From the NCBI GenBank assembly GCA_023379265.1, contig JAMCUI010000009.1, positions 167,802 through 231,801 of the forward strand: a stretch of DNA of 64,000 nt, given 5' to 3'. Each line of letters starts with the position of its first letter. The first letter of the stretch is position 1. Position numbers and translations under genes: made by a program. Below the pieces are notes generated by a model, which had not been told where the DNA came from, did no database searches, and saw nothing but the letters and a program-made list of their open reading frames with translations. Positions 6,807-59,397 of this stretch are shown in pieces. The DNA is from Patescibacteria group bacterium (GTDB lineage: Bacteria; Patescibacteriota; Microgenomatia; 2-02-FULL-39-11).

Positions 6807-6815
6807 TAGATACCT

Positions 6816-19857: not shown

Positions 19858-20526
19858 ATGAAAAGTCTGAAACAGGCAGTATTTTTTTTGACCTTATTTT
19901 CTGTAACTTTATTTTTACCCCAGTCAGTTTTTGCTGACGGCGCATACGGTGGAGGATGTACTCCAGTTTACGGTGGAGGAGTACAGTGTCCACGAGTCGG
20001 ACAAGTTCTAGTAAATAAGACTGTACAAAATCCAGCAACAGGAGTTTTTGTCGACAATCTTGGTCCGGCAGACCCCAAATATCGTCCCGAACAGGTAGTC
20101 ACTTTCCATATCGATGTGCAAAATTCCGGTGACCAGACTTTGGATGCTGTCACTGTGAAGGATACGTTACCGGCATATGTGGATTTTATGTCTGGCCCTG
20201 GCAACTATGATGCTAATTCTCGTGTCTTGACCTTTACCGTCAATAATCTGGCGGGAGGAACTGACCAGCAATATGAGGTGAAGGCAAGAACAGTCCATCC
20301 GGCTGTTTTGCCGTCAAATAAAAATGTGGTCTGTCTGGTAAACATGGTGGATGCTACCAGTGGAGATCAGTCTGATCACGACGAAAGCCAATTTTGTATA
20401 GAAAAACAGATAACCGTGACCTCAGCGCCTTCTGCAGGTCCCCAGCATTGGATGTTGACACTAGCAGGCCTGGGATCAGCACTTGTATCTGGTTTGTATC
20501 TGAGAAAAAAAGCGATTATTGGTTAA
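19858..20526 (+). CDS. secreted DUF11 (conserved-repeat-domain) cell-surface protein with C-terminal membrane anchor
   Basis: Signal peptide MKSLKQAVFFLTLFSVTLFLPQSVFA. DUF11-like FHIDVQNSGDQTLDAVTVKDTLPAYVDF. C-terminal hydrophobic helix plus LRKKAIIG. Confidence 0.6.
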   Translation: MKSLKQAVFFLTLFSVTLFLPQSVFADGAYGGGCTPVYGGGVQCPRVGQVLVNKTVQNPATGVFVDNLGPADPKYRPEQVVTFHIDVQNSGDQTLDAVTVKDTLPAYVDFMSGPGNYDANSRVLTFTVNNLAGGTDQQYEVKARTVHPAVLPSNKNVVCLVNMVDATSGDQSDHDESQFCIEKQITVTSAPSAGPQHWMLTLAGLGSALVSGLYLRKKAIIG

Positions 20527-23859: not shown

Positions 23860-25347
23860 ATGTCTGCGAAAATTCCCTGGTTGATTCTTGGCGCATCGAT
23901 TTTGATTTTAGGATTCTATTTTCTTTTTTTTGGGAAAATACAGATAGCTGGTGACATAGTGGAATACTACGGAATGACAGTGTCGATTTTGAATCACGGG
24001 GACGTTTCATTGCGAAATAGCGATAAGACGGATATTGAAAAATATTTGCCTGCAGCTTACTTTTCCGACCCCCAATATTATATGGTCGGGGCCAATCAAG
24101 TAAGATATCCGGTCCATTTCCCTTTTTATGCGTATCTTCTCATTCCATCAAGAATAATCCTTTCATTAATGGGAGCAAATCCGATGTTATCATTTCCATT
24201 GACAAATATTTTAATATTGGCATCAGTACTAATTTACGCCTTTAGAAAGTATATCAAAGAACCGGATAAAAGACTTTTTTTGTTGTTTCTTGTGTATTTC
24301 TCCCCATTAATTTTTTTCCTTGGTTGGCCGGGCCCGGAAATTTATTACACAGGATTGATTTTTATTAGTATATTGGCTTTCATTTCAGGTGAATATTTTC
24401 TTTCCGCGTTTTTCTCCGCTCTCGCTTCATGGCAGAGCCAGCCGCTAATCGTGGTTTCCTTTATAACGGTCATTTATATGGTGATCGATACTCTTGTTAA
24501 ATTTAAGAAGAATAGAGTAGCAGAGAAAAACTCCAACAATTATTTATTGGTTATTAAATCATTATCAATATTGTTGCTGATGTTTATTCCCTACGTATTT
24601 AGTTATTTCCAATTTGGACTTTTGACTCCGTGGACAAATATTCGCAATGGCTGGACGGAAATAAACGGATTTGGTTTACAGAATATCAGCCTGAAAAAAC
24701 TTTTTGAACAGTTTTTCGATTTGAATATGGGACTTTTTTGGTATGCGCCGTTTACTCTTGTGATCGGATTTTATTATTTGATTAAAAGGATTATTGTTGA
24801 CAATAAAGCCGTATTTCTAAGCGCGATCTATCTGGTAACCGCCTTTTTTTATCAGACTAATCCTGCGTGGAATTATGGTACTGCAGGTTACGGCCCTACA
24901 AGACATATTGTTTACATTCTTCCCTTATTTATAGTTCTTGCTATTGATTTTCTTCATGAGAAAAAACTGAGTATTATTACTTCTATCATATTTTTTATCC
25001 TGTTGTGTCTGCAAACTATATCCATGAATATGAACGGGTGGGTAAATCCGGATTTCAGAAATTCGCTCAGGAATAATTACTACGCAATCTATATTTTGGA
25101 CAATTTTCCTTCCTTATATAATCCAACCCCAGAGATATTTGTTGATAGGACTAATCAGACTGATCTGGATCACCCGACATCCGGGTTTTATAAATACAAA
25201 GGGTATTGTACAAAAGCATATGTTTTATCGGACGAACTTAATAATCTGGAAAATCAGTGCGGTTATATTCCAACTGAACAAAAAAAATCGATTATCGCTG
25301 GGTTGAAAACGTTAAATCCTTATCAAGGAATCTATGTCAATTATTAA
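23860..25347 (+). CDS. polytopic integral membrane protein (possible GT-C-like / polymerase-like)
   Basis: More than 10 TM helices, no soluble domain. Assignment from context only. Confidence 0.5.
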   Translation: MSAKIPWLILGASILILGFYFLFFGKIQIAGDIVEYYGMTVSILNHGDVSLRNSDKTDIEKYLPAAYFSDPQYYMVGANQVRYPVHFPFYAYLLIPSRIILSLMGANPMLSFPLTNILILASVLIYAFRKYIKEPDKRLFLLFLVYFSPLIFFLGWPGPEIYYTGLIFISILAFISGEYFLSAFFSALASWQSQPLIVVSFITVIYMVIDTLVKFKKNRVAEKNSNNYLLVIKSLSILLLMFIPYVFSYFQFGLLTPWTNIRNGWTEINGFGLQNISLKKLFEQFFDLNMGLFWYAPFTLVIGFYYLIKRIIVDNKAVFLSAIYLVTAFFYQTNPAWNYGTAGYGPTRHIVYILPLFIVLAIDFLHEKKLSIITSIIFFILLCLQTISMNMNGWVNPDFRNSLRNNYYAIYILDNFPSLYNPTPEIFVDRTNQTDLDHPTSGFYKYKGYCTKAYVLSDELNNLENQCGYIPTEQKKSIIAGLKTLNPYQGIYVNY

Positions 25348-28300
25348 GAATAAACATTTTTATTATTTATTCTTCCTCATATTAGCTGTTGTTGTCATTT
25401 GTTTTACCAACTATAAGCCGGGAACATGGTTGACTGGTTGGGATAATCTGCATCCTGAGTTTGATTTCCCCATGAATATAAACAGATCGATTTTTGCCGT
25501 CTGGCAGGAATATCAGGGATTGGGCCTTCTTGGCGGGATGGGTCATGCTGCCGACCTGCCAAGACAATTATTATTGTCAATTTTTTCAATAATTATTCCG
25601 GTAAGCTTGTTAAGATATTTTTATCAATATCTGATGCTTATTGTCGGCGTATTGGGAATCTATAAACTTGTAATATTCTTTCTTAGCGATAGATTAAAAG
25701 ATTCGTCAGTAAGAAAGATAGCATTACTCTGCAGTTTATTCTATCTGTTAAATCTGGGAACCATACAGAATTTTTTCTTTCCTTTTGAACCTTTCAGTAC
25801 TTTTTGGGGATTCTTTCCATGGGAGTTATGGGGATTATTTAATTATTTGAATAAACCAAACAAAAAAGCTTTTATATGGTTTGTCTTTATAAATATACTA
25901 GCGATTCCTCAAGCGTACGTGGAAACAATATTTCTAGTATATTTACTTTTTATTTCTATAATATTTCTGATTTATTTCTTCACAAATAAAAGCTTTTTGA
26001 CTTTTAAGAAAATTTTTGTGATCTCCGGAACTATTTTCCTTATTAATTCCTTCTGGATTCTTCCCAATGCTTACTTTATTTTTACCAGTGTTTCAGTAAC
26101 TCAGAATGCCATGAATAATAAAATGAACAATGACAGATTTGTTGAAATGAATCTTAAGAGAGGGCATCCAGGAGATTTGATATATCTGGAAGGATTCAAT
26201 CTGGATACTCTGGATGATACTCAAACTCCCGGAAAGCCTGTTTATATGATGCAGGTATGGAGGGATTATTATTCACTTTTACCGATTAGAATAGAAGGAA
26301 TAATATTTTTCATTCTTACTCTTTTGGGGATTTTGAAGGGGAGGAGGAAAAGTAAATATATTGCCGGAATGTCGATTTTGAGTGTAGTAGTGTTATTAAG
26401 CGATACTCCAATAATTTCAACAATAAATTTTCTATTACGGCAAATTCCACTCATTAACCAGGTAATCCGTAACCCCTTTACTAAATTTATCGTTCCCACA
26501 GCTGTAATCTATGCTGTTCTTTTTGGATTTGGTTTGTCGTTTATTTTTGAACACTTTGAAAAAAAAAGAGAAAGAGCAATAAAAGTAATATTCCTTTTAC
26601 TTACATTAATGGTATTGATATACGGATTACCGGCGTTTACCGGACATCTGTTTTCTGACAGATTGAGGATTAAAATTCCTGATTATTATTTTCAAGTATT
26701 TAATTACTTTAAGACTAAAGATCCCAACGCGAGAATAATGAATCTTCCACAAGATACTTATTGGGGATGGGGTTCCTATAAATGGGGTCTTACTGGTTCA
26801 GGATTTTTATGGTACGGTATTGGACAACCTGTTATGGATAGAGCTTTTGATGTTTGGAGTAATTACCTTGAGCAGTATTATTGGGAGTTAATTTATGATT
26901 TGAGGATGAGAGATCAGAATCTTTTCAATAAAACGGTAAAAAAATACGACATCACTTATGTATTATATGATGAGAGTTATATTCCTTCCGATTACAATAG
27001 CTTAAAATGGATAATTCAGCAGAAAGAGTTGTTGGATAATAATCCGTTATTTACTAAAGTAGCAGATTTCGGCACTGTAAGCATATACAAAATTAACGAT
27101 AATTCTGGCTCCGGTTCGATGAGTCTATTAAATAGTGTTCCACAAACTATAAAATACGAAAATTTCAGTAATACTGATGATTTGTTTAACTCTGTCGGAA
27201 ATTATTATGAAGAGAATAATAAACCGGAACCTGATTATGTTTATCCTTTTGAATCATTATTTACAAATCGATTCCAGAATGAAGTAAAATTTTCGGTTTC
27301 AGACACAGCCAATGATATCAGCTTTACGAAAGAAATACCAAAAGGTAATTATAATTTGAATATTCCCTCTTTAATAAATGATGAAAAAATTTTACCTTTT
27401 GCTATTTACGCGAAGATCGAAGGTGGTAGCTTAATTTTAAGCTTTCAACTGAAAAGTCCGGAAGTGCACGTAGATAATGTGGTAGTTAATAATAATCCGA
27501 TCTCCAAGCAATTTGCAATTCCTATTCCGGTACAATTTAGTGGGAACTATTATTTACTTAGTATAAATAATAGGGACTTTTTAAGCATAGTAAACCCTTC
27601 CGATAATTACGAGTATATTGGTGATGCATATTTAATTAACAGTCTAATTGGTAATTCCGTATCTCTATATTCGGGAAGCAATCCTGCGATTCAGGATTTG
27701 GAACCGAAAAAATTTAACGCCGCAGTTGACTGTAATTCGGGAAAGTCAACCAAGTCCAGCTTGACTGAGGTATCGGGAAACATACTGAAAATATTTGCAC
27801 AAGGTAGTTCTACATGTGTACCATACAGTTCTCCATTGATCAACTTGCCAACCAGAGGATTGGACAGGATAAGTTTTGTTTATAAATCCAAATATGATGA
27901 ATTTCCAAAATTCTGTTTTAGGAATTTATCTTCAGGTAATTGTATAAACCAATCAAATAATAACAAAATAAGCTTTTCCACAAATTATCTCAGGTATAAT
28001 GAGTATTTTGAGGATAAAGGCGGGATAAATAATATAAATACTTTTTCGTTTATTCTTGAGCCGGGGTATGACAAATCTTTGTCTGGAGAAAAAAACATAT
28101 CTTATCAGAATATTGAAGTATTCTCCTACCCTTTTATCGATTCATTTGACTTTGACACAACCTCTTTAAGTCATAATTCTGTAACAGAGTTTAAATTTAA
28201 CATTAATAAAAGTTCCTTAATCGAAGTTAATGTACCTAAAATATCTGGAAGTTATGAGTGGAGTAACCTTATAAACGATAACCAGTATAAAAGGAACCCT

Positions 28301-29203
28301 CAAGAATATAATCCTGTTGAAGGGGATTTCTATATGTCAGAACATATTTATCCGGACAATGATAAAAGTCTACTATTATATTCTAAAAATTATTTGTTAA
28401 ATTATTTGTTTGAACAAAATAATTTACCTTCTGACGTAGGATATTTATTATCAATGAGTACTAAGTTAGTTAACGGGTTTCCGCTAACTCTGAAGACTAC
28501 TACTGTAAAAAACGATACCACTTATGTGTATACTCTTATGTCGAAAAGTACAAGTTTCGACACCTCAAGATATATTTTGCCACCTATTTATCAGTTTGAT
28601 GATGGAATTAGAGTACAATTTACAGATAGCTCTTTCAACCAGATACCATCGGTAAATGAGATAAAAGATATTTCATTAGATCCAATACCTTATAAATACC
28701 TGACGAAAATTAGTTTGACCTCTTCTACCTCAGAAAAGAATAATGAAAATAAAATAGTTCTACCATTCACTAAGGATAATATTTCAGATTATTCTGTTAA
28801 AATTAATTCAAATACAGTAGAAAGAAACACGATCTTAGCTTTTTCACAGAGTTATGATAGCGGTTGGAAAGCATATTCAATAAACGAAGAACAAATATCA
28901 AACAGCAATTTGTTGACAGAATTATTTCCTTTCTGGTTTGGTACAGAACTAAAAGACCATGTGATGGTGAATAACTGGGAAAACGGTTGGAAGCTTGAAC
29001 AACCAACTAACAACAAACAACTAATAAACATAATTGTCGTTTATCTGCCGCAATATCTGGAGTACGTTGGATTTATTCTGTTGGTGATAGGAATATTATC
29101 CGTAATATTTTATCCAGGAGATAAGCAACTGGACGGTAAAAGAGCAGAAAGCCAAGAACAAAGTAGGAATAACCCGGAAATGTCTGACACAAAACTATTG
29201 TAA
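25334..29203 (+). CDS. giant YfhO-like GT-C family membrane protein (1289 aa) with a ~750-aa extracytoplasmic insertion
   Basis: N-terminal GWDNLHPEF...VWQEYQGLGLLGGMGHAADLP parallels the YfhO block GGDLLTQFYFW...FWSPYNFSGMPFLAHP of the neighbouring gene. The C-terminus YDSGWKAY...VNNWENGWK plus a final TM resembles the YfhO C-terminus. Confidence 0.65.
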   Translation: MSIIKNKHFYYLFFLILAVVVICFTNYKPGTWLTGWDNLHPEFDFPMNINRSIFAVWQEYQGLGLLGGMGHAADLPRQLLLSIFSIIIPVSLLRYFYQYLMLIVGVLGIYKLVIFFLSDRLKDSSVRKIALLCSLFYLLNLGTIQNFFFPFEPFSTFWGFFPWELWGLFNYLNKPNKKAFIWFVFINILAIPQAYVETIFLVYLLFISIIFLIYFFTNKSFLTFKKIFVISGTIFLINSFWILPNAYFIFTSVSVTQNAMNNKMNNDRFVEMNLKRGHPGDLIYLEGFNLDTLDDTQTPGKPVYMMQVWRDYYSLLPIRIEGIIFFILTLLGILKGRRKSKYIAGMSILSVVVLLSDTPIISTINFLLRQIPLINQVIRNPFTKFIVPTAVIYAVLFGFGLSFIFEHFEKKRERAIKVIFLLLTLMVLIYGLPAFTGHLFSDRLRIKIPDYYFQVFNYFKTKDPNARIMNLPQDTYWGWGSYKWGLTGSGFLWYGIGQPVMDRAFDVWSNYLEQYYWELIYDLRMRDQNLFNKTVKKYDITYVLYDESYIPSDYNSLKWIIQQKELLDNNPLFTKVADFGTVSIYKINDNSGSGSMSLLNSVPQTIKYENFSNTDDLFNSVGNYYEENNKPEPDYVYPFESLFTNRFQNEVKFSVSDTANDISFTKEIPKGNYNLNIPSLINDEKILPFAIYAKIEGGSLILSFQLKSPEVHVDNVVVNNNPISKQFAIPIPVQFSGNYYLLSINNRDFLSIVNPSDNYEYIGDAYLINSLIGNSVSLYSGSNPAIQDLEPKKFNAAVDCNSGKSTKSSLTEVSGNILKIFAQGSSTCVPYSSPLINLPTRGLDRISFVYKSKYDEFPKFCFRNLSSGNCINQSNNNKISFSTNYLRYNEYFEDKGGINNINTFSFILEPGYDKSLSGEKNISYQNIEVFSYPFIDSFDFDTTSLSHNSVTEFKFNINKSSLIEVNVPKISGSYEWSNLINDNQYKRNPQEYNPVEGDFYMSEHIYPDNDKSLLLYSKNYLLNYLFEQNNLPSDVGYLLSMSTKLVNGFPLTLKTTTVKNDTTYVYTLMSKSTSFDTSRYILPPIYQFDDGIRVQFTDSSFNQIPSVNEIKDISLDPIPYKYLTKISLTSSTSEKNNENKIVLPFTKDNISDYSVKINSNTVERNTILAFSQSYDSGWKAYSINEEQISNSNLLTELFPFWFGTELKDHVMVNNWENGWKLEQPTNNKQLINIIVVYLPQYLEYVGFILLVIGILSVIFYPGDKQLDGKRAESQEQSRNNPEMSDTKLL

Positions 29204-29303: not shown

Positions 29304-30677
29304 ATGCTGCGTAAGGCTGTAACCACAATACTTTTTATAATTATCGTTGCGGCGATTTCAGTAAATGTTACTCCTTACGTCCGGCAACTGCTTTTACAGT
29401 CCGGGGCAATACAAGAAGAAGTGCTTATTGCCGGAACTGGATCAATGTATCCGACTTTCCCCAAAGGAAACGGCAAGACGGACGTAGTACGCGCTCAAGA
29501 AACGGTTGCCTGGCCAAAGATGAGAATTTATCCCTCAGGGATAAATATCTTCGGTTTTCACTTTTTTTCCTACAAACTCCAACATGGGGATATCGTGGAA
29601 TTCGAGAATAAAAAGACAGACCAGATTTCAAAGGAGAAATACGGGGATACCGCCGGATTTGTAAAAAGGATTATCGCTTTACCCGGTGATACCATTGATT
29701 TGCGTGACGGTTTTGTTTACTTAAACGGTGAGAGGATTGACGAGCCTTATACAGCCAAACCCAGATCCACTTATGGCGGCAATTTTTTAGCCGACTGTAC
29801 CAACCTGAAAATTCCGGTTGGCAGCGTGTTTGTCATGGGTGACAATAGAAAAGCGAGCTTGGATTCAAGGTATGAATTGGGATTGGTGGATATTTCCGAT
29901 ATCCATTTTGTCTTGCCATGGGATGATCAGGAGACTTACCATAAACTTTGGCGGGATACTGAAAATGATGCGCTTTTAGCAAATACTCCGACACTGGATG
30001 CTTCAGAGTTTATAAAACTTCTTGATGAAAAAAGACAAACAGCAAACGGTACATCACCTTTGAGATACAATGTCCTTTTGACAAATTCCAGCAAGATTAG
30101 GGGGGATGCCATGATAAATACTGATGATTTTTCGACAGAAGCGACAAGAAGTGGCATGACTTTGGCAAAATCTATAAAAGAATCCGGTTATGAGAATATC
30201 ATTTTTGCCGAAGTTTATACCCGTGGTTATTATGATGCGCAAGAATTGGTAGACAATTTTCTTGAGTTTCCGGATACGAAGAAGATTCTATTTTCTGCAG
30301 AATATCAGGATATTGGTATCTCGCCCGTTTTAGGAGAAATAAATAGTTGTCCCTCACAGGTGATTGTGGTTCATCTTGGAGGATATGTTCCTCCCAGCTA
30401 TACACAGAAGGAAATTGGCAGTTGGCAATCGCTTATCGAGAATATTGAAAAAGTATTGCCGTCGTGGGAAAGCGCAAAGGGTGCAGAAGGAATAAGCCAG
30501 TCAAAACTGGATCAGTTATTAAATATATTAAATACCAGACTCAGTAATGCTAAAATAATATATGCAAGGATGCAGGCTGATCAATGGTTGACAGACGCCC
30601 AGAAAAAAATGGTATCCGATGATCCGCAACTGGCAGCGCAGGCAAATGATTTAATAGATCAGTTAAATAAGAGATGA
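29304..30677 (+). CDS. lepB: signal peptidase I (S26A, LepB) with a ~250-aa C-terminal extension
   Basis: GTGSMYPTF (Ser box), VKRIIALPGDTI (Lys box), and GDNRKASLDSRY (box E). Residues ~210-457 are an additional domain of unknown function. Confidence 0.8.
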   Translation: MLRKAVTTILFIIIVAAISVNVTPYVRQLLLQSGAIQEEVLIAGTGSMYPTFPKGNGKTDVVRAQETVAWPKMRIYPSGINIFGFHFFSYKLQHGDIVEFENKKTDQISKEKYGDTAGFVKRIIALPGDTIDLRDGFVYLNGERIDEPYTAKPRSTYGGNFLADCTNLKIPVGSVFVMGDNRKASLDSRYELGLVDISDIHFVLPWDDQETYHKLWRDTENDALLANTPTLDASEFIKLLDEKRQTANGTSPLRYNVLLTNSSKIRGDAMINTDDFSTEATRSGMTLAKSIKESGYENIIFAEVYTRGYYDAQELVDNFLEFPDTKKILFSAEYQDIGISPVLGEINSCPSQVIVVHLGGYVPPSYTQKEIGSWQSLIENIEKVLPSWESAKGAEGISQSKLDQLLNILNTRLSNAKIIYARMQADQWLTDAQKKMVSDDPQLAAQANDLIDQLNKR

Positions 30678-32881
30678 AGAAGAACACTTTTATTTTCAGA
30701 CTTTTGCCACTTCTATTCCTCTTGCTGCTAATTCTTTTACAATTCGGACAAACTTTAATCCCATCTGAAGGAAAAATGATATACGGTGGAGATCTTCTTA
30801 CCCAGTTTTATTTCTGGAAAGGGTATTTAGCTTCAAACGTTAGGAGCGGCGTTATTCCTTTTTGGAGTCCTTACAATTTTTCAGGCATGCCATTCTTAGC
30901 CCATCCGTCTACAGCTGCATTTTATCCCCTGACTTTGCTATTTGTTCTCTTGCCTCTAAATATAGCCTTTTCAATTAATTATGCCATTCATATTTTAATC
31001 GCCGGTTTGGGAATGTATTTACTATTGCGTTCGTATAAAACAGACGAATTATCCGCGCTTGCAGCTTCTGCCGCGTTTATGCTATCCGGGTTTATTGGAG
31101 CAAGGGTTTACGCTGGGCATGTGGATATTATCTCTACAGCTGTTTGGATTCCATGGGTGTTATGGTCGACTCGTCAACTACTCTCAGAACCGTCAAAGAA
31201 GAATTTCCTTCTTTTGGTTGCTAGTACCTCTTTGGAGATATTAGCATCGTATACTGCCATAGTGCTTTTTACTGTTGAGGTGGTAACAGCATATTTGGCT
31301 TTTACTTTTGTTATTGATTTATGGTTATATCGCCGGATTAAGATAAGTAAATTTTTACTCGTTTTCCTGTCGTTTACTATTGCAGCCGCCTTGACGGCAA
31401 TCCAATGGTATCCTACGTTGCAGTTTATCAATCTATCAATAAGAGGTGGAGGATTGCCTTATTCTATGGTTTCATGGGGATCATTTCCTCCATCAGCTTT
31501 GAAGTTATTTGTAGACCCTTACAATGTATCGGAGTTGGCCAAATTTCCTTACACTTTTGCCGGATTTACTCTACCGGACTTTTTTGATTATTATCCCGGC
31601 CGGATAATGCTCCTAATCGCAGTTGTATTTATTATCTTAAAATTGTTGAAATTATTTACAGGAAATATATTTGGGAAAAAGATTCTCAGCGTTAACCATG
31701 ATTTCTGGTTTTACCTTTTTATGATATGTATCTTTATATGGTTGGCTACTGGTGGGGAGTTGAAATATAGCCTGCATCATTTATTTTATACTCTAATTCC
31801 CTTTTACAGAAATATACGTATTCCTACACAGCATCTTATCATGGTTTCATTTCTCTTACCGCTCATATTTGGTATGGCAGTTTCTTCAGTGAGAAGTAAA
31901 CTTTTTAGCTGGTTGATTATGATAATGATTGTTATGGAGCTTCTACCATTCAGCCGGCAATTTTTCATAAATACTAATATTCCCGAGATTAAATATGATC
32001 AGAATCTGGTAAAAACACTTAAATCCACTACTCAAATAACACGTTTCCTGCCAGATTTCGGAGTGATAAGTCCGACAGAAAAATTATTAAATTTCAATTC
32101 GGCCGAAGAATACGCAATCCAATCAACTACAGGTTATGACCCGATGATTTTGAGAAATTATTTCGATTTTATAGATATTGCCAATGGTAACAGAAGTTCG
32201 TCCCAAGAGTATTATAATGTGGAAGTTCCTCCTCTATCTCCATATTCTCCCGCTCTTGATTTTCTCAATATAGGATTTATTATGACTGAAGCGGACCGTA
32301 ACTGGCAGGAAAGAGGCCGCCCGATAAAATTTTCCACCCTTCTATCCTCAGACAAATATATACTATACAAGAATAATAATGTTTTACCTCGTTTTTTTCT
32401 TGTATCACGATTTGTGGCTTTATCAAATACAGCGGCAGTCAAAGAAAAACTTCTTACTGCCCAACCGGATGATTTCCGCAGAAATGTATATATAACAAAA
32501 GATGAACAAAGCAAATTGCCGCAAAAGGCAGTGTATGACTGCGGTAATTATCCGAATGCTGGAATCTATGATGATGTGTATACTCCAGGCAAAATAGTTT
32601 TAACTATGGAAACAAATTGTAGCGGAATTCTAGCTACCAGTGAAATCTACTATCCCGGTTGGAAGGCAACCATTGACGGTAGAAAAGTGCCGATTTTGTT
32701 AATCAATACTGCTTTCAGAGCAATTTATTTGCCAGCAGGTAAACATACGGTCATATTTTATTACCAGCCTGATATTTACCTTTTCGGGGGGAAACTATCA
32801 CTTTTAGGATGTGCGGCGATTGTTCTAATCCTGGCTGGTTGGAGTCTCATACCAATTAGTCTTAGAAAAACAAGAAAATAG
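30674..32881 (+). CDS. YfhO family GT-C glycosyltransferase
   Basis: N-terminus GGDLLTQFYFWKGYL...FWSPYNFSGMPFLAHPSTAAFYP, and a C-terminal YYPGWKATIDGRKVPILLINTAFRAIYLPAGKHTVIFYYQP characteristic of YfhO. Confidence 0.8.
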   Translation: MKKNTFIFRLLPLLFLLLLILLQFGQTLIPSEGKMIYGGDLLTQFYFWKGYLASNVRSGVIPFWSPYNFSGMPFLAHPSTAAFYPLTLLFVLLPLNIAFSINYAIHILIAGLGMYLLLRSYKTDELSALAASAAFMLSGFIGARVYAGHVDIISTAVWIPWVLWSTRQLLSEPSKKNFLLLVASTSLEILASYTAIVLFTVEVVTAYLAFTFVIDLWLYRRIKISKFLLVFLSFTIAAALTAIQWYPTLQFINLSIRGGGLPYSMVSWGSFPPSALKLFVDPYNVSELAKFPYTFAGFTLPDFFDYYPGRIMLLIAVVFIILKLLKLFTGNIFGKKILSVNHDFWFYLFMICIFIWLATGGELKYSLHHLFYTLIPFYRNIRIPTQHLIMVSFLLPLIFGMAVSSVRSKLFSWLIMIMIVMELLPFSRQFFINTNIPEIKYDQNLVKTLKSTTQITRFLPDFGVISPTEKLLNFNSAEEYAIQSTTGYDPMILRNYFDFIDIANGNRSSSQEYYNVEVPPLSPYSPALDFLNIGFIMTEADRNWQERGRPIKFSTLLSSDKYILYKNNNVLPRFFLVSRFVALSNTAAVKEKLLTAQPDDFRRNVYITKDEQSKLPQKAVYDCGNYPNAGIYDDVYTPGKIVLTMETNCSGILATSEIYYPGWKATIDGRKVPILLINTAFRAIYLPAGKHTVIFYYQPDIYLFGGKLSLLGCAAIVLILAGWSLIPISLRKTRK

Positions 32882-51947: not shown

Positions 51948-53387
51948 ATGAGGAAACTGCCCCTATTCCTTTTTGCCTTTTTGTACTGTTTATTGGTTTT
52001 TCTTTTTTTTCCGGCAAAACTGACAGCTTTGGAATTGCCATCTCCTCCCAATCTGCACGGACAGACTGATTCTGTAATCATCAAATATAAAAGGAATTTA
52101 TCTTTAGACGAGAGGCTTTCTGTCCACCGACTTATTAGAGTCCAAAGTATAAAAGGGAATATAGCCAGGCTTGGCGCCGAAGCGGTCAGGTTATCATCCG
52201 GTCAGACGCCGGAAAAAGCAATTGGATTATTGGACAAAGATCCCAGAGTCGCTTATGCAGAGCCAGATTATAAGGTTTATACAGCTGAGGATACCAATGA
52301 TCCGGGGATTTTGCAGGGACTGCAGTGGGGGATGTATAAAATAAATGCCGCTGGAACGGGTATAAGCGCCTGGAATCTGGCAAAAAGTAGCCCTTCAGTG
52401 GAAATTGCCATAGTGGATACGGGTATCGATCAAAGCAATGAAGACCTGAAGGGAAAGATTGTCGCCAATCACAATTGCACTGACAGTCCTACAGCGGATG
52501 ACCTTTTCGGACACGGAACGCATGTGGCAGGAATCGCTGCTTCCGAAACAAACAATGGCGTGGGCGTTGCGGGAGTTGGTTACAAGGCCTCTCTTATAAA
52601 CGCCAAAGCTCTAGGAGATGATGGTTCAGGCTATTATTCGTGGTTGGCAAATTGCATCATCTGGTCTGCCGACAACGGAGCCAATGTGATAAATATGAGC
52701 CTGGGTGGGCCCTATTCTTCCCAGACTCTTGAGGATGCGGTAAATTATGCCTGGAATAAAGGGGTAGTAATTGTAGCTGCAGCGGGGAACAGTAATTCTC
52801 CTTATCCTTTCTATCCGGCATATTATTCCCATGTGATTGCTGTAGCTGCTACAGATATAAACGATTACCGTGCCTCTTTTTCCAATTATGGCCGTTGGAT
52901 AGCAGTAGCTGCGCCAGGAGTATCCATATATTCGACTCTTCCGGACCATCCCAATGCCATAGGTGTGGAAAATTATGGATATCTATCGGGCACTTCCATG
53001 GCTTCTCCCCATGTAGCCGGACTGGCAGGGCTTCTTTTCGGCATAAACGGTATGACTAATACACAGGCTGTAAACGATATTGAAAACGGTGCAGACTATA
53101 TACCCGGTACGGGATTTTATTGGCAATATGGCCGTATTGACGCCTTGGCCAGTGTACAAGAAGCATTAAACAATCAGATTTCTGTGCCAACTGTTACGCC
53201 TATTCCTACAGCTACTCCTACTCTTAAACCTTCTCCTACTCCGACACTGACTCCGACTCCAAAGCCGACTTCTACGCCTGTGCCTACTCCGACCTCTCCA
53301 TCCGGTGTTACACCGACGCCTACACCCTATAATCCTTTTGCGCGTTGGTGCGCCAGATTTCCCATCTTTTGCAACGGAAAATTCTGA
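51948..53387 (+). CDS. secreted subtilisin-like serine protease (S8) with Pro/Thr-rich C-terminal linker
   Basis: Signal peptide, catalytic triad in IVDTGID (Asp) / HGTHVAGIAA (His) / GTSMASPHVAG (Ser), and PTxTPxP repeats near the C-terminus. Confidence 0.85.
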   Translation: MRKLPLFLFAFLYCLLVFLFFPAKLTALELPSPPNLHGQTDSVIIKYKRNLSLDERLSVHRLIRVQSIKGNIARLGAEAVRLSSGQTPEKAIGLLDKDPRVAYAEPDYKVYTAEDTNDPGILQGLQWGMYKINAAGTGISAWNLAKSSPSVEIAIVDTGIDQSNEDLKGKIVANHNCTDSPTADDLFGHGTHVAGIAASETNNGVGVAGVGYKASLINAKALGDDGSGYYSWLANCIIWSADNGANVINMSLGGPYSSQTLEDAVNYAWNKGVVIVAAAGNSNSPYPFYPAYYSHVIAVAATDINDYRASFSNYGRWIAVAAPGVSIYSTLPDHPNAIGVENYGYLSGTSMASPHVAGLAGLLFGINGMTNTQAVNDIENGADYIPGTGFYWQYGRIDALASVQEALNNQISVPTVTPIPTATPTLKPSPTPTLTPTPKPTSTPVPTPTSPSGVTPTPTPYNPFARWCARFPIFCNGKF

Positions 53388-53446: not shown

Positions 53447-54946
53447 TTAACGGATTGGGCCAAATGTCTGTTTTATATCATTTCGAACAAATATTCCGGC
53501 GTACATATCCTGGAAAACTATTTTCCAGCGGCCCTCATTCACAAGTTTGAGCATCTGCTTATATATAGGTTTGGTTGGTGGCATATAGACTTCGTCATAT
53601 TCGGAAGCGTCCACGCTTGCCATATTCTGCTCCAGCGGGTAATAGTGTGCAAAGGCGCTGTAGCCGTGGTCATCTTTCCAGAAAGGCATGCGTCCGTCCA
53701 TTGACGGTTTTATATTGGGGTAATTCCAGATGAGCCATCCTCCCCAGTTGTAAAAAGTCAGCAGTTTTCCGGCGGGTTTGTGTTCCACAAGATATTGGGC
53801 CGACTTGGGTGAGCAGAATATATATACATTGCAGTAAAAATCCCAAGACATGGATCTTAAGAGCACCGACTGGTTGTGAATAAATATGGAATAAAAGTAA
53901 TAAGCAGCCAAAAGGAATGTAGCAAAGATTGCCGATATTTTTTTGTTTGGCGGTTCTATGGCTTTGACAAAAACAGCGACTACAGGGATGGAGATAAGAA
54001 ACATCGGCCAGGAGTATCTCCTCATCCAGAATGAAAATACAAAAAGTAGAATCATGAGGCAGATATAAGGTAAGAGTTTTTTCACCTGTCTCTTTTTGGC
54101 AATTACAATAAGGCTTATAGCAATCAGTATTCCCCAATAGACAAGGCGCCACCAGAGGGTCGAACCAGGATCAAAAGGAGTCCACTCGACAATATATTTT
54201 TGCAGAGGATTGTCAAAATGGTGTGTCGCTTCCAGGTAGACGCGCCAGGTGAAGGGATTGACGAAAGTTGCGGCAAAGGATAGGAAAAAAGCGGAAACAA
54301 GTATTCTCCACTCATGGAAATCAGTCTTTATCCTTAACCGGTATTTATCATAAAGAAGACGCAAAGTATATATCCCTATCCAGCCGGCAAAAACTCCCAG
54401 CCCTAGTATGAATTCCCCATGGAGGTTGCTCCAGACAAGAAACATGGGGATTATGCCAAAAAGCCATTTGTACTTTTTTTCTTGAAATTTGGAGATGAAA
54501 AAGTATACCAGTCCTATAAAGCCCAGAGTCATCAGCTGTGAGCGGAAAGAGATGATAGTAAGCGGTTCCTCTAGGAATAAAAGGATGGGAAAAAGTACTG
54601 CCTGTTGCCAAAAATTCAGCTTTGCCGCCTTTGCAAAAAAATACATAGTTGCGACTACTACCAGAGCCCCCAGGACGCTCAATCCGAAAAAGCCGAAATG
54701 GTGGTATGTAAAATAGGTGATGGCGTCAGTCCCCCATGAGTGGTTGACCCAGTCGTAATTTACCATCTCCGATGAGAAAAGATTTTTGGTCAATATGGCA
54801 TGGTGCTGGAAAAAGTACTGTCCGTACCGCAGGTGCCATCCCAGGTCCGAGTCGGCCGGGTTGTAAAGTGACGCCACAAAGACGACAACCAGTGGGAACA
54901 GTCCGACGAAATATAAGGTAAAAAGTTGTTTTACCCAGTTTTTCAT
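53447..54946 (-). CDS. polytopic membrane protein, GT-C-like (tentative)
   Basis: About 12 TM helices. First loop NPADSDLGWHLRYG. No soluble domain. Confidence 0.5.
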   Translation of the reverse strand: MKNWVKQLFTLYFVGLFPLVVVFVASLYNPADSDLGWHLRYGQYFFQHHAILTKNLFSSEMVNYDWVNHSWGTDAITYFTYHHFGFFGLSVLGALVVVATMYFFAKAAKLNFWQQAVLFPILLFLEEPLTIISFRSQLMTLGFIGLVYFFISKFQEKKYKWLFGIIPMFLVWSNLHGEFILGLGVFAGWIGIYTLRLLYDKYRLRIKTDFHEWRILVSAFFLSFAATFVNPFTWRVYLEATHHFDNPLQKYIVEWTPFDPGSTLWWRLVYWGILIAISLIVIAKKRQVKKLLPYICLMILLFVFSFWMRRYSWPMFLISIPVVAVFVKAIEPPNKKISAIFATFLLAAYYFYSIFIHNQSVLLRSMSWDFYCNVYIFCSPKSAQYLVEHKPAGKLLTFYNWGGWLIWNYPNIKPSMDGRMPFWKDDHGYSAFAHYYPLEQNMASVDASEYDEVYMPPTKPIYKQMLKLVNEGRWKIVFQDMYAGIFVRNDIKQTFGPIR

Positions 54947-55368
54947 ATCAATATGAGTAATAGAGTATATACCCTTCTTACTGTATTTTGAAACTTTTTC
55001 GCAAGAAAAATGTTACTAAATCAGTCTAGAAGGGTATATGCTGATTGCAATTTCAAGTGCAAGAAGTATAACACAACTTTTCAATAAAATCGGATGCAGC
55101 TCTCCGTTTTATACCTTTGGGAAGGTCCGCAGAAGATTATACGGAACAAAATATAAATAAAAAGAACACGCTGTATACCACCGGAAAATTGATATACTTT
55201 TTCATATTTTTCTCTATTATTTCACAGTTGACATTCATTTTTTTTACATTATGATTGGGGACGGTTTATTTCTTACCGACCGCCAGCGGAGGTAAACTTT
55301 CCCAAAATAAAGATGCGCTTGCCCGCCTCCAATCAAAACGTAAGTATTGTACAAAAAGCATATTTTAG

Positions 55369-55395
55369 CCACTCCTTTTGGAGTGGTATTTTTTT
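55369..55395 (+). terminator. terminator-like hairpin in the 5' leader of the TasA-like gene (CCACTCC-TTTT-GGAGTGG + TATTTTTTT)
   Basis: 7-bp stem, 4-nt loop, 9-nt T-rich tract. It lies 24 nt upstream of the start codon with no upstream plus-strand gene to terminate, so it is a possible attenuator. Confidence 0.45.
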
Positions 55396-55418
55396 GCGGG
55401 AAGGGGGTGAAAAAAATA

Positions 55419-55955
55419 ATGAGCAGGAAAATCGTAATTAGCGGACTTTCCATACTAGCTTCTCTGGCGCTTTTAGGAGTTGGAGTTTATGCTGCGTTAG
55501 TATCTACAGCAACAGCAACAAGTAATACATTTTCATCGACAAATCCAAGCCTATTAATCTCAACTAATAATACTACCTTTAATACCACAGTCGGAGGTGT
55601 TACCGAATCAGGTATTATTCCAGGTGGAACACCTGTTGTACACGATTTTTGGCTACAAAATACAGATACAGATCCTGGTGCAACGATGAATCTAACAGCA
55701 ACAATAAATGTGACAGGTGGAAGTGGCGGATCTTATAATGATAATTTATCACTAACTTACACTTGTGGTTCAACTACAGCTGGACCATTCTCAATTACTG
55801 CATGGAATGGGCATGTCCCCCAAAGTTTGGGAACTTTAGCACCAGGTGGTGTTGTCCATTGTACCTTGTCAACTAGTTTACCAAGCGGAGATTCTGTAGA
55901 TGCAGGGAAATCAGTAATATTTGATACGTCATTTGACGGATCAGTCGGTTCTTAA
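55419..55955 (+). CDS. TasA/camelysin-like secreted protein with SipW-cognate signal peptide
   Basis: MSRKIVISGLSILASLALLGVGVYAALVSTATATSNTFSS matches the SipW-cognate class signal (TIGR04088-like ...GTxAxFSD). The mature part is Thr/Ser/Gly-rich and beta-type. Internal ATG preferred over the longer track ORF. Confidence 0.55.
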   Translation: MSRKIVISGLSILASLALLGVGVYAALVSTATATSNTFSSTNPSLLISTNNTTFNTTVGGVTESGIIPGGTPVVHDFWLQNTDTDPGATMNLTATINVTGGSGGSYNDNLSLTYTCGSTTAGPFSITAWNGHVPQSLGTLAPGGVVHCTLSTSLPSGDSVDAGKSVIFDTSFDGSVGS

Positions 55956-56013
55956 AAAATCTTAATTCCTAATAGTGTAGGGCTGCACGGGCAACTTACA
56001 CTGTTAGGAATAG

Positions 56014-56559
56014 GTGTTGATTATGAAATATTTGAAAAAGATAGTCAAAGTTATATTGTCCATATTTACATTTATTGCAATTCCAGTAATCCTTTTTGTA
56101 TTAATCACCTCTCACTTTTCCGTATTTGGCGGAATTCGGTCATTTGACGTACTCACCGGCAGCATGGAACCTACTATACACGTAGGTAGCATGATTTTTA
56201 CAAGACCTGTATCAACGTATAAAGTCGGAGATATCATCACTTTCAAACGGGGAGACATCTCTGTGACACATAGAATTCATGCGTTGAAGAACGGGCAGTA
56301 TCAGACTAAAGGTGATGCCAATATTTCACCTGATCCGCAGTTAGTCTCCTCATTCCAGATTATAGGAAAGGATATTTATATCTTTCCCAATGTTGGTAAA
56401 TTAACCAACTTTATAAAGTCTTTTCCCGGGTTTATAAGTTTAATTGTAGTTCCTATCCTTTTATTTGTCGGATTTGAATTAAATACTATCAAGGAGGAAT
56501 ATAAGAAAGTTATAAGAAAAGATATTCTGGAAGAGATGAATGCGTATAGAAAAGTATGA
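56014..56559 (+). CDS. sipW: signal peptidase I, archaeal/ER type (SipW)
   Basis: N-terminal TM, VLTGSMEPTI (SMEP catalytic Ser box), VTHRIHAL (His), GDAN, and a C-terminal TM. 181 aa. Confidence 0.75.
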   Translation: MLIMKYLKKIVKVILSIFTFIAIPVILFVLITSHFSVFGGIRSFDVLTGSMEPTIHVGSMIFTRPVSTYKVGDIITFKRGDISVTHRIHALKNGQYQTKGDANISPDPQLVSSFQIIGKDIYIFPNVGKLTNFIKSFPGFISLIVVPILLFVGFELNTIKEEYKKVIRKDILEEMNAYRKV

Positions 56560-57137
56560 AAAAGAATATATTTCTATTTACCGTATTGATGATCGAGTGT
56601 ACTTTTTATTTTGTACCCGGTACATTTTCTCAATTTACCGCACAAGCCAAAATGATAGGTAATACCTTTTCTACGGCAGTCAGTTTTGTGACACCAACCC
56701 CTACTCCTTCCGTCACTCCTACCCAAACCCAGACACCAACTCCTATTCCAACACCATCTTCGTTGCCAAATCTTCCTCCCGGTTGCAGATATGTATGGAC
56801 GACAATCACACCATCTCCTACTGTTTCACCGAGTGAAACACAATCTATACGGGATCTGCACTCTCTTCAAACTCTGCAGCAATTACCTACATTACCACCT
56901 TTACCAACGCTTAAGCCATTGCCCACATTACAACCGCTGCCTATAATTGTATGTGATTTTGCACCTTTACCAACTTTACCACCTTTATCACCCCTTCCAA
57001 CCTTACAATCATTACCTACGTTACCACCTATTGAGTCGCCGACTCTAACTCCCACAAAAATACCTACACCATCCATAAGTCCAACGAATACTCCAACACC
57101 CACGATTTCGACTCCAACACCTACACCTTCCGTGTGA
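56556..57137 (+). CDS. SipW-cognate-signal secreted protein with Pro/Thr/Leu-rich repeats
   Basis: N-terminus FVPGTFSQFTAQAKMIGNTFSTA (SipW-cognate motif) followed by TPTPT and LPTLPPLPTLKPLPTLQP repeats. Confidence 0.5.
   Translation: MKKNIFLFTVLMIECTFYFVPGTFSQFTAQAKMIGNTFSTAVSFVTPTPTPSVTPTQTQTPTPIPTPSSLPNLPPGCRYVWTTITPSPTVSPSETQSIRDLHSLQTLQQLPTLPPLPTLKPLPTLQPLPIIVCDFAPLPTLPPLSPLPTLQSLPTLPPIESPTLTPTKIPTPSISPTNTPTPTISTPTPTPSV
56874..57040 (+). repeat. degenerate tandem repeats encoding LPTLxP units
   Basis: ttaccNacNttaccNcct-type ~18-bp units repeated about 8 times. Confidence 0.5.
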
Positions 57138-57207
57138 TATTTATCACGTTTGTGTTTGCGTATGATAAGTTACTGACATTTATTTTTATTTTGTGTAAAT
57201 TGGTGAA

Positions 57208-58203
57208 ATGCTGCCCAAAATTAAAATAGGTTATTTTCTACTCGGTGCCTTTCTCGGTTTACTTACGCTTTTTAACCAGGTAAAAACCGCAAGCGCGCAA
57301 TATTTCTGGCCCAGTTCCGTCTCTTCTTTTGCGCCACAAGATTATTATTTTAGTTATCTCAGGTCCTATCCTTTTCCCACTTTTTCGCCATTACCGACTC
57401 TTCGGGCGCTGCCTACACTTCTTCCTCTTCCTACTCTAGGAGCTCTTCCGCCGTTGCGCAGTACTACACCGACGCTTACTCCAACCAATACTCCCGAGCC
57501 GACAATTACTCCATCGACAACGCCATCCGAAACTCCGGAACCGACTTTAACTCCATTGCCAACTGAGACTTCCCAACCGACAATAACCCCATCTGTCACT
57601 CCGACTCCGACAGTGACGCCATCTACTACACCGACAGCTACAGCGACACCTTCACTGACTCCATCTCCGACTCCCACGCCGACGGTGACAAAAGAAGCAC
57701 AACCGGGAGACGTGGTCATAAATGAGATAATGTGGGCCGGCAGCAGTAGTAGCAGTGCTGATGAGTGGGTGGAGCTGAAAAATACCACCACACATGGCAT
57801 AGAGTTGAGCGGTTGGACAGTGGAAAATCTGGGGAATTCCACTATTCTTGATGCAATTTTGCCGGAGAGCACCATATCGGCTCAGGGTTATTTTCTCATC
57901 TCACATTGGAGGAAAGATAATTCGGTACTAAATATCGATCCAGATTTTACTTTTCCGTCTATGAATCTTTCCAATGGCGGGGAACAATTAGTGCTGAAAG
58001 ATACAAAAGATACGGTAATTGACGCTGCCAACGATACAAATAGTTGGTTTGAAGGAGACTCGGTAAACCCGAAAAAATCCATGTCACGGACAGATCCACC
58101 GGGAGACGGGACACTCTTTGAAAACTGGTTTACATCAACCGGTTCGGCAAATCTTGACTCTGAAGCAATTGAACAGGCTACTCCCAAATCCGCGAATTAT
58201 TAA
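57208..58203 (+). CDS. secreted lamin-tail-domain (LTD) protein with PT-rich linker
   Basis: Sec signal. The C-terminal VVINEIMWAGSSSSSADEWVELKNTTTHGIELSGWTV matches the LTD pattern VINEvm...EWIELyN...LsGW. Confidence 0.6.
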   Translation: MLPKIKIGYFLLGAFLGLLTLFNQVKTASAQYFWPSSVSSFAPQDYYFSYLRSYPFPTFSPLPTLRALPTLLPLPTLGALPPLRSTTPTLTPTNTPEPTITPSTTPSETPEPTLTPLPTETSQPTITPSVTPTPTVTPSTTPTATATPSLTPSPTPTPTVTKEAQPGDVVINEIMWAGSSSSSADEWVELKNTTTHGIELSGWTVENLGNSTILDAILPESTISAQGYFLISHWRKDNSVLNIDPDFTFPSMNLSNGGEQLVLKDTKDTVIDAANDTNSWFEGDSVNPKKSMSRTDPPGDGTLFENWFTSTGSANLDSEAIEQATPKSANY

Positions 58204-58240: not shown

Positions 58241-58385
58241 GTAATGTAAATTCCATAACCAGCAAGGTTGGAAAATTTTGTTGGTGTGTTGACCAAAAAG
58301 TAATATTTGTATTTCACTTATCGCATTTCAGCCAAAAAGCTGGAATAAGCGTCCTATATGCGATCTTAGGGAATTTACACATACT
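58241..58385 (+). repeat. copy B of the recurrent intergenic element (gtaatgtaaattcc ... GGAaTAAGcGTcCTATATGCGATCTT ... ggaatttaca)
   Basis: The 10-bp terminal inverted arms tgtaaattcc/ggaatttaca compensate for the arms of copy A tgtaaattt/aaatttaca. Confidence 0.4.
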
Positions 58386-58491: not shown

Positions 58492-59397
58492 ATGCTGAAA
58501 AAATTCAGACAAATTGTCCATCATTATTTTATCCCTCATGAGAGCAACAATTTCCGGGCACGGCTCCTCCATCATAGGGTGATTGTCTACTACATCATGC
58601 TCCTTATCGTATTTCAGATGTTTATCGGTATGGCGGGAGGAAGCGGTGGTAATGTCCTGGGGTATGCAACAGATATAAATATTGACCGGGTACTCTACTA
58701 TGTCAACCAGGAGCGTACCAGCCGGGGACTTTCATCCCTGAAACTGAGTTCTGAATTGAATGCAGCTGCGACACAAAAAGCAACAGACATGTTTGACAAA
58801 AATTATTGGGCCCATATTTCTCCTACGGGGACAACTCCTTGGACTTTTATTACAGCCTCAGGTTACCATTATGTCTATGCAGGTGAAAACTTGGCTAAGG
58901 ATTTTAATACCTCCAAGGAAGTGGTGGATGCATGGATGAATTCTCCCTCACACAGAGAAAATATTCTAAAGCCCGAATATACTGATATCGGTATTGCCGT
59001 CATGAATGGCAGGCTTACAGGTGAGGATACTACTCTTGTGGTTGAGGAGTTTGGTTCCCAATCCCAGCCACAGACAGATAATGTTGCCTCAAATAATCCT
59101 TTGCCTGAACCGACAGCTACTCCAACAATCCAACCGGTAGCCTCAGCACAAACCAAACCGGAGAATCCACCGCCAGCAAGTGTTGCCAGCAACAAACCTT
59201 TGATCCTTTCTGCCTCTGTCTCCAAATCAGTGTCACTTGTTTTGGCAGAGATTCTTCTGATCGTACTTTTCCTGGATAGCCTTTATATGTGGAAATTTAA
59301 GCCAGCCAGGATTTCAGGTCATAGTCTAGCTCACATAATATTTCTGGCAGCTCTTATTGGAGCAATGGGTGCCACAGGTATCGGAGTTATTTTATAA
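58492..59397 (+). CDS. CAP/SCP (YkwD-like) domain protein with N- and C-terminal TM segments
   Basis: GENLAKDF...VVDAWMNSPSHRENILKPEYTDIGIAV CAP signature. Confidence 0.7.
   Translation: MLKKFRQIVHHYFIPHESNNFRARLLHHRVIVYYIMLLIVFQMFIGMAGGSGGNVLGYATDINIDRVLYYVNQERTSRGLSSLKLSSELNAAATQKATDMFDKNYWAHISPTGTTPWTFITASGYHYVYAGENLAKDFNTSKEVVDAWMNSPSHRENILKPEYTDIGIAVMNGRLTGEDTTLVVEEFGSQSQPQTDNVASNNPLPEPTATPTIQPVASAQTKPENPPPASVASNKPLILSASVSKSVSLVLAEILLIVLFLDSLYMWKFKPARISGHSLAHIIFLAALIGAMGATGIGVIL

Follow-up and report, generated by a model that had tools for sequence, protein, structure and literature searches.

A 64,000-nucleotide stretch of a Patescibacteria group bacterium genome (contig JAMCUI010000009.1; the whole stretch is referred to as the window) carries on its plus strand an operon of four genes that probably encodes a divergent TasA-type extracellular fiber system: a small TasA/camelysin-like protein (p1, the proposed major subunit), a signal peptidase of the Sec11/SipW type, a secreted protein made of a strand motif and a Pro/Thr-rich stalk (p3), and a secreted lamin-tail domain (LTD) protein (p4). 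A large share of bacterial diversity falls within the Patescibacteria, or candidate phyla radiation (CPR), whose members live attached to other microbes. To our knowledge, type IV pili are the only surface appendages studied so far in these organisms, and by analogy with the Bacillus system the operon is likely to represent a second kind of surface fiber in a group known mainly for such pili. An initial annotation, made from the letters of the DNA alone, had described this locus as a SipW-type signal peptidase with two TasA-like substrates, followed by a repeat protein and an LTD protein. The open reading frames (ORFs), the motifs ALVSTATATSNTFSS and VPGTFSQFTAQAKMIGNTFSTA, the peptidase boxes and the PF00932 domain on which that description was built are all present where it had placed them, and its interpretation stands in part.

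The homology of p1 to the TasA superfamily is well supported at the sequence level, by way of intermediate homologs and profile-profile comparison. The protein is 100% identical to the NCBI hypothetical protein M1271_03675 from a metagenome-assembled genome (MAG) of a Patescibacteria group bacterium, and a single-sequence search returned only one relative. A two-sequence profile, run against a database of 5.8 billion sequences, added ten relatives with E values from 1e-45 to 1e-6, of which the remoter ones have precomputed PF12389 (TasA) matches, and the p1 profile reaches proteins positive for PF12389, TasA and TIGR04088 at E 1e-18 to 1e-19. Upon re-scanning of 12 relatives, PF12389 matched five (best E 2e-15), the TasA model NF046066 six and TIGR04088 four (best 8.4e-8), and two were touched by TIGR04089; within the close clade of p1, PF12389 matched four of 14 proteins. 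In addition, hhalign aligned the p1 clade with PF12389-positive Firmicutes proteins encoded beside SipW-like peptidases at 96.7% probability (E 4e-10). When 1.84 billion representatives were scanned exhaustively with HMMER, 97 family members were recovered at E up to 1e-3, all of ~180-200 residues and all displaying the N-terminal pattern A-x-F-x-x-x-A-x-x-x-x-N-T-F-S-(S/T)-G.

The p1 protein comprises a signal peptide (residues 1-25) and a predicted beta-sandwich body with conserved Cys116 and Cys148. Between them lies the predicted mature N-terminus ALVSTATATSNTFSSTNPSLLIS, the first part of which is the motif ALVSTATATSNTFSS (residues 26-40 counted from ATG 55419). Few parts of the family are as well conserved as this segment, which aligned with TasA residues KSKDATFASGTLDLS when the family profile was compared with the Protein Data Bank (PDB); the top match of that comparison is TasA itself (5of1, E 0.044), over the region of the donor strand defined in PMC9674648. 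The AlphaFold2 model of p1 has a predicted local distance difference test score of 82.7, and Foldseek placed self-complemented FimA pilins first (E 1e-4), with TasA only at rank 30, although it had the best query TM-score of all (0.46); the modeled fold is consistent with TasA, not decisive for it. The start codon of p1 is almost certainly ATG 55419, as indicated by an AAGGGGG ribosome-binding site, by homologs that begin with MNRKI and by the NCBI call of 178 residues, and TTG 55347 is merely the longest mechanical start of the ORF.

The peptidase encoded by the second gene has 181 residues from GTG 56014, or 178 from ATG 56023 in the NCBI call, and is 100% identical to the "signal peptidase I" of the MAG that encodes the p1 match. 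It had been assigned to the archaeal/endoplasmic reticulum (ER) type rather than to the LepB type (S26A), and this assignment is borne out: the protein scores 87.5 bits with TIGR02228, the archaeal-type signal peptidase I model (cutoff 51.85), against 25.8 bits with the LepB-type model TIGR02227 (cutoff 47), and its best solved relatives in a PDB search are SEC11A and SEC11C, catalytic subunits from the human ER. The boxes GSMEP (residues 49-53), THRI (residues 85-88) and KGDAN-x3-D (residues 99-107) are matched in the alignment to the SEC11A boxes for Ser, His and Asp, and Ser50, His86, Asp101 and Asp107 are invariant across 25 homologs. Hydrophobic stretches read from the sequence predict transmembrane (TM) segments at residues 13-33 and 137-156, the latter aligning with the C-terminal TM segment of SEC11A. 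As judged from these boxes and model scores, the peptidase is an enzyme of the SipW/Sec11 class, not of the LepB class, with a predicted Ser-His(-Asp) catalytic set instead of a Ser-Lys dyad. Unlike Bacillus SipW, it stays below the 190-bit cutoff of the equivalog model NF046067 with 78.5 bits, and consequently it is considered a relative of SipW, not an orthologue.

In the third gene product, p3, the signal peptide is followed by an N-terminal strand motif and then by a Pro/Thr-rich stalk that contains LPTL repeats; the protein has neither a beta-sandwich body nor a globular domain. The motif VPGTFSQFTAQAKMIGNTFSTA occupies residues 20-41, and QFTAQAKMIGNTFSTAVSF of p3 and ALVSTATATSNTFSSTNPS of p1 stand in identical register from the start codon, with N36-T37-F38-S39 in both. 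When a profile of the family N-terminus, built from ~100 representatives, was searched against the 658 six-frame ORFs of the window, only p1 (E 7e-23) and p3 (E 5.8e-4) were matched, the next best ORF having an E of 1.3, which places the pairing of the motif in these two proteins beyond chance; with the full family profile p3 was found at E 3.1e-4 among the same ORFs. In agreement with the initial annotation, the peptidase is flanked by two proteins with a SipW-cognate-like N-terminus. Its proposal that both are TasA-like holds for p1, distantly, through the intermediates and hhalign, and fails for p3, in which the beta-sandwich body is missing. The ~150 residues that follow residue 44 of p3 are 51% Pro, Thr and Ser and contain no predicted domain. 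A tandem array with a period of 9 nt, 6.9 copies and 67% matches was found here by Tandem Repeats Finder (TRF); the LPTLPP repeats had been attributed to a separate downstream gene, and they lie instead inside ORF3 (residues 110-158), a shorter set being present in ORF4 (residues 60-83).

In the closest related contig, L082, in which the peptidase is 71% identical and the p1 orthologue only 40%, the p3 orthologue (6504-7070) is 47% identical to p3, displays the same architecture with the first 44 residues nearly identical, and keeps the repeats as PLPT(Y/L). No homology to the Ig-like domain of TapA was found in p3 by Pfam and NCBIfam scans. We propose that p3 is a functional analogue of TapA, not a TasA-like protein, and that it may act as a strand donor, nucleator or end-piece. 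The core of its signal peptide (56556-56630) contains a charged/Cys pair, IEC (E14, C15), which is also found in L082 and is unusual for Sec signal peptides.

The fourth product, p4, has an ordinary signal peptide (residues 1-30), an aromatic-rich segment, PLPTL repeats (residues 60-83), a Pro/Thr linker (residues 84-161) and an LTD at residues 164-273 (nt 57697-58026), which scores 54.5 bits with PF00932 (cutoff 34.3, E 1.7e-14), as expected for the downstream secreted LTD protein reported earlier. This domain shares 44% identity (E 7e-40) with the C-terminal region of a protein encoded directly after the peptidase at another locus (L011 6583-7302), in which N-terminal motif, Pro/Thr linker and LTD form one chain, and such fusions of the LTD to the motif tie p4 to the system. 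An orthologue of p4 in L082 (3742-5046) is 50% identical and is located 5' of the TasA-like gene. The mature N-terminus of p4 (57298-57384) is strikingly rich in aromatic residues, QYFWPSSVSSFAPQDYYFSYLRSYPFPTF, as is that of the L082 orthologue, ADFSFPDFPFFNRFFYHDFAFRLFP, in both cases before the PLPTL repeats, and this segment may bind to the wall or the membrane. The possibility that the repeats of p3 and p4 stem from a recent duplication was considered and found unsupported, BLASTP between the two proteins giving only non-significant repeat matches.

The association of these genes recurs in related genomes. Peptidase relatives were sought in one genome per GTDB species and 557 were found, the neighborhood counts given here being those of the best 79 loci. 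Most of these loci belong to Patescibacteria (Levy-, Roizman-, Moran-, Davies-, Woese-, Nealson- and Saccharibacteria, WWE3 and Paceibacterota), and Clostridia and Bacilli are also represented. A TasA-like ORF lies directly upstream of the peptidase on the same strand in 46 of the 79 loci, a partner ORF directly downstream in 38, and a partner on at least one side in 55, in line with the synteny to be expected from the initial annotation. Directly after the peptidase, 17 loci have an LTD ORF and at least 12 a motif protein with no domain or a small one; proteins with the N-terminal motif occupy this position in L001, L004, L006, L008-L012 and others. The proteins encoded after the peptidase follow a consistent plan of signal peptide, strand motif, Pro/Thr linker and variable C-terminus, the latter being an LTD in L010, L011, L017 and L050, an N/T-rich "GNG" repeat domain in L001, L004, L008, L009, L012 and L083, and another domain in L006. 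Strand tag and LTD are carried by two proteins in the window and by one protein in several relatives.

In Bacillus, SipW cleaves both TasA and TapA, TasA polymerizes by N-terminal donor-strand exchange and the N-terminus of TapA is the first donor (PMC9674648, PMC10151520). TasA fibers consist of folded subunits polymerized by donor-strand exchange (PMC9674648, PMC10151520), and the "amyloid-fiber" label initially applied to the locus is for this reason outdated. The cleavage sites, the specificity of the peptidase for its substrates, polymerization and the roles of p3 and p4 are deduced here by analogy with that system. Thus, we hypothesize that Sec exports p1 and p3, which are then cleaved by the co-encoded membrane peptidase with its Ser-His-Asp set, not by the housekeeping LepB. 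Cleavage, expected approximately after VYA25 in p1 and TFS25 in p3, would expose a strand of the form x-F/L-x-x-x-A-x-x-x-x-N-T-F-S-(S/T). Mature p1, predicted to be a beta-sandwich of ~150 residues, would then form a head-to-tail polymer with the strand of one subunit inserted into the next, as in Bacillus TasA and archaeal AbpA. A protein such as p3, with a strand and no acceptor domain, would fit only at the groove end of the fiber, where it may donate the first strand and nucleate or cap the fiber like TapA, its Pro/Thr stalk of ~150 residues possibly serving as a spacer through the cell envelope. The lamin-tail (Ig-like) domain of p4 probably has a binding or anchoring function.

Several observations weigh against a TasA-type fiber. 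Direct Pfam and NCBIfam scans of p1 gave no match to PF12389 or NF046066 at E up to 1, TIGR04088 reached 12.9 bits (E 0.093, cutoff 19), and this only with the N-terminus scanned alone, and p3 has no Pfam or NCBIfam match, TIGR04088 included; the comparison with TIGR04088 and the TasA/camelysin models that had been suggested as a check is accordingly negative for both proteins, and the link of p1 to TasA is transitive, through intermediate homologs and profile-profile comparison. Moreover, the hhalign match is limited to the N-terminal 86 columns, and donor-strand exchange between p1 subunits is deduced from the behavior of TasA. As for the accessory proteins, no membrane or wall anchor was recognized in p3 (no C-terminal TM segment, no LPXTG), which makes an anchoring role speculative. 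The signal peptide of p4 is ordinary and without the motif, and in L082, the closest relative, the p4 orthologue is found on the opposite side of the cluster, so p4 is linked to the function of the system only by association.

The alternative that fares best, although we regard it as unlikely, is that p1 is a non-polymerizing surface beta-sandwich, for example a monomeric adhesin or an envelope component, and that the peptidase matures a small regulon sharing a special signal peptide. Polymerization of p1 is a prediction, and this alternative can also draw on the size of mature p1, ~150 residues against 234 in TasA, and on the presence of TIGR04088-type signals on proteins of possibly non-fiber function. 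It leaves aside, however, that conservation within the family is highest in the N-terminal strand, which in TasA forms the inter-subunit interface, and that a strand-only partner, such as p3 and its equivalents at many loci, is best understood if the strand serves for docking.

An improbable alternative concerns the accessory genes, p3 and p4 being in this case unrelated Pro/Thr-rich envelope proteins, or p3 the decayed remnant of a motif-LTD fusion, with no role in the assembly of p1. The absence from p3 of a globular domain and of a match to any curated family would be in accordance with this, as would the behavior of the gene callers of other assemblies, which skip p3 and call opposite-strand ORFs instead; furthermore, the occurrence of motif and LTD in one protein in relatives means that the arrangement in the window could be a product of fission. 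Nevertheless, the architecture of p3 and nearly all of its first 44 residues are preserved in L082 even though the p1 orthologues share only 40% identity, and motif proteins with no domain or a small one follow the peptidase in at least 12 loci. The p3 region is also identical in an independent assembly from another run (Logan SRR10267473), which matches all 3.7 kb of the region, gap-free and with a single mismatch; the repeat-rich ORFs are therefore not assembly artefacts.

It is very improbable that the peptidase is the general signal peptidase of the organism and its place between p1 and p3 incidental. Enzymes of the Sec11/archaeal class are the general signal peptidases of archaea and of the ER, and the genomes of Patescibacteria are reduced, both of which would favor this idea. 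Yet the window also contains, at a distance of 26 kb, the gene of a bona fide LepB-type peptidase (TIGR02227, 94.2 bits, cutoff 47; PF10502, E 2.7e-25), which argues for the peptidase of the operon being an extra, specialized enzyme. In the same direction, TasA-like or motif-bearing neighbors recur in the 55 of 79 peptidase loci mentioned above, across many Patescibacteria classes and Firmicutes, and the end of the peptidase gene overlaps the start of p3. The LepB-type enzyme has an unusual C-terminal YkwD/CAP-like region (TIGR02909, E 1.1e-5, residues 234-342). Finally, that p1 is a camelysin-type (MEROPS M73) metalloprotease and not a structural protein, as the name of the related Pfam family (Peptidase_M73, camelysin) might suggest, is scarcely credible, given that p1, p3 and p4 contain no HEXXH or other metal-binding motif, that none of the three His of p1 is invariant, and that the solved TasA structures are jelly-roll fiber subunits (PMC9674648, PMC10151520).

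A TasA-type fiber thus remains the reading that we prefer, and the operon can be compared on this basis with known systems. Like tapA-sipW-tasA of B. subtilis, the operon behind the TasA fibers of its biofilm, it encodes a dedicated Sec11/archaeal-type peptidase between or next to its substrates, a major subunit with a jelly-roll/beta-sandwich fold (predicted for p1) and an N-terminal strand of the form A-x-F-x-D...N/T-F-x-S-G, and a minor second substrate whose N-terminus mimics the donor strand (the processing of p3 being predicted); one accessory gene overlaps the peptidase gene in both cases. In contrast, the gene order here is subunit, peptidase, accessory, that is, a tasA-like gene followed by the peptidase and a protein with the N-terminal motif, so the Bacillus arrangement initially ascribed to the locus is not reproduced. 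In addition, p1 is ~80 residues shorter than TasA and below the PF12389 and TIGR04088 thresholds, p3 has a Pro/Thr stalk only in place of the Ig domain of TapA, to which it is unrelated in sequence, an LTD protein is associated with the cluster, and the host belongs to a monoderm lineage of the episymbiont type, not to the Firmicutes.

The AbpA/AbpB bundling pili of Pyrobaculum calidifontis (PDB 7ueg; PMC9245690) offer a second parallel, in that a larger neighbor protein has been proposed both to bear distal adhesin-like domains and to supply the first strand; the archaeal operon, however, has no dedicated peptidase and its accessory proteins differ, and sequence similarity to p1 was undetectable here. 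Type 1 pilins of the chaperone-usher pathway (FimA, FimG), the top Foldseek matches, likewise have an incomplete Ig-like fold completed by the N-terminal strand of a neighbor, but they belong to non-homologous diderm systems with an outer-membrane usher and a periplasmic chaperone, neither of which is found here. The peptidase shares with Sec11/SPC18 of the ER and with archaeal signal peptidase I (MEROPS S26B) the Ser-His-Asp residues in GSMEP, THR and KGD...D boxes and the N- and C-terminal TM segments; unlike those general peptidases it is a second, operon-embedded enzyme beside one of the LepB type. Finally, the combination of a signal peptide with a conserved post-cleavage motif is that of the TIGR04088/TIGR04089 classes of SipW-dependent or alternate-type signal peptides, from which p1 and p3 differ by their sub-threshold results.

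The four ORFs, as read from the window, span 55347-55955, 56014-56559, 56556-57137 and 57208-58203 on the plus strand, and the peptidase stop codon and the p3 start codon overlap in an ATGA junction. The coordinates of the features discussed are collected in Table 1. The promoter-like site is sigma-70-like and the best of the region, and is a consensus match only, promoters of Patescibacteria being uncharacterized. An 8-bp GC-rich hairpin followed by a T-run at 55368-55387 (plus strand), in the p1 leader that separates the promoter-like site from the start codon, could be an attenuator; hairpins with a T-run, this one and that at 58259-58271 included, are not more numerous in the region than expected by chance. 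An Rfam scan of the operon and leader returned nothing real, with a chance match to mir-85 at E 0.66.

Table 1. Positions, strand and basis of assignment of the features of the operon and of the LepB-type peptidase gene in the window.
Feature	Position	Strand	Basis
Promoter-like site, TTGACA / 16 nt spacer / TATGAT, 5' of the operon	55228..55255	+	11/12 consensus positions
p1 (ORF1), 178-aa TasA/camelysin-like protein, proposed major fiber subunit	55419..55955	+	remote homology
p1 aa 26-48, ALVSTATATSNTFSSTNPSLLIS, predicted mature N-terminus and proposed donor strand	55494..55562	+	aligns with TasA KSKDATFASGTLDLS
Signal peptidase I (ORF2), Sec11/SipW/archaeal type	56014..56559	+	TIGR02228
p3 (ORF3), 193-aa secreted protein, strand motif and Pro/Thr-rich stalk	56556..57137	+	family N-terminal profile
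p3 aa 26-44, QFTAQAKMIGNTFSTAVSF, strand motif	56631..56687	+	N-terminal profile and direct reading
p3 aa 110-158, degenerate LPTL(P/K/Q)P repeats	56883..57029	+	TRF
p4 (ORF4), 331-aa secreted LTD protein	57208..58203	+	PF00932
Terminator-like hairpin and T-run, 3' of p4	58259..58271	+	weak: 5-bp stem
LepB-type (S26A) signal peptidase I, 457 aa (context, outside the operon)	29304..30677	+	TIGR02227, PF10502

The operon is flanked by ordinary chromosome, with genes for RF2, FtsEX, a PcsB-like M23 peptidase, a GNAT protein, Sua5, an S8 subtilase and a 499-residue membrane protein upstream, and with a CAP/YkwD gene and dTDP-rhamnose genes downstream. The 499-residue protein (53447-54946, minus strand) is polytopic, is transcribed divergently from the operon, is conserved in L084 and L085, both independent assemblies, and has no relative in Pfam, NCBIfam or the PDB; a role in glycosylation of the Pro/Thr stalks was considered and dropped, as no evidence for it was found. 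The secreted S8 subtilase (51948-53387, plus strand), which adjoins the cluster in L084 too, has a fervidolysin-like N-terminal prodomain and a Pro/Thr-rich tail with a terminal Cys-containing motif. Directly 3' of the operon, the CAP/YkwD protein (58492-59397, plus strand) has a Pro-rich linker and a C-terminal TM segment; a CAP/YkwD gene is also located directly after the p3 orthologue in L082 (7110-7835), and the protein may be part of the same neighborhood. Elsewhere in the window, a DUF11-repeat surface protein (19858-20526, plus strand) and a 1289-residue ORF without a Pfam match (25334-29203, plus strand) are located near the LepB gene and a gene for a YfhO-like membrane protein (30674-32881), which points to a broader cell-envelope neighborhood around them.

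Two further types of conserved secreted protein, neither of them found in the window, are encoded in related clusters (L006 7222-8939, L010 7225-8935, L011 7375-8511, L009 6805-7404, L001 2622-3236). One type, of ~360 residues, has a TasA-like beta-sandwich without the N-terminal motif followed by RTX-like GGxGxD repeats, and another, of ~200 residues, is N/T-rich with repeats of the form GNGVGSTNT...TGGNxANGNTG. In both of the most closely related contigs, a sortase gene is found no more than a few kb from the TasA-like cluster (L082 2911-3567, L083 7907-8452). A sortase-assembled pilus was nevertheless rejected, as no LPXTG motif or sortase occurs in the operon of the window. Many loci (L003, L005-L007, L012, L018, L026 and others) come from MAGs titled "uncultured Gammaproteobacteria bacterium ... 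binchicken" and yet display Patescibacteria-type clusters and low GC; these titles are probably taxonomic mislabels.

PF12389 homologs in Patescibacteria had already been noted in passing, in one sentence (PMC9245690), so that the lineage itself is not the new aspect. Beyond that report, our literature search found no description in Patescibacteria of a SipW/TasA-type operon, of its peptidase or of modular end-pieces, and nothing relevant on SipW in CPR or on LTD proteins associated with TasA. The locus and its 50-plus relatives constitute a compact and testable candidate for a second fiber class, with a small subunit, its own peptidase and a lineage-variable end-piece. Versions of the cluster are carried by Saccharibacteria (L016, L028, L034, L036), for which genetic tools exist (PMC10633639), and this makes the fiber prediction testable. 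The TasA/AbpA family of donor-strand fibers would also gain a third major lineage, and one whose subunit is minimal, which helps to define what is essential for assembly.

In a wider and more tentative view, which we consider less likely than not, Patescibacteria broadly use modular donor-strand fibers: a short strand tag at the N-terminus, processed by a dedicated Sec11-type peptidase, would allow exchangeable cargo or adhesin modules to dock at the end of mini-TasA fibers. Such modules would be lamin-tail and N/T-rich repeat domains, further folded domains and, as in the window, bare Pro/Thr stalks, and the tag-less proteins of related clusters in which a TasA-like domain precedes RTX-like repeats would be further components. 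If this is the case, these episymbionts would possess a second organelle, distinct from the type IV pilus, for attachment to the host or to a matrix.

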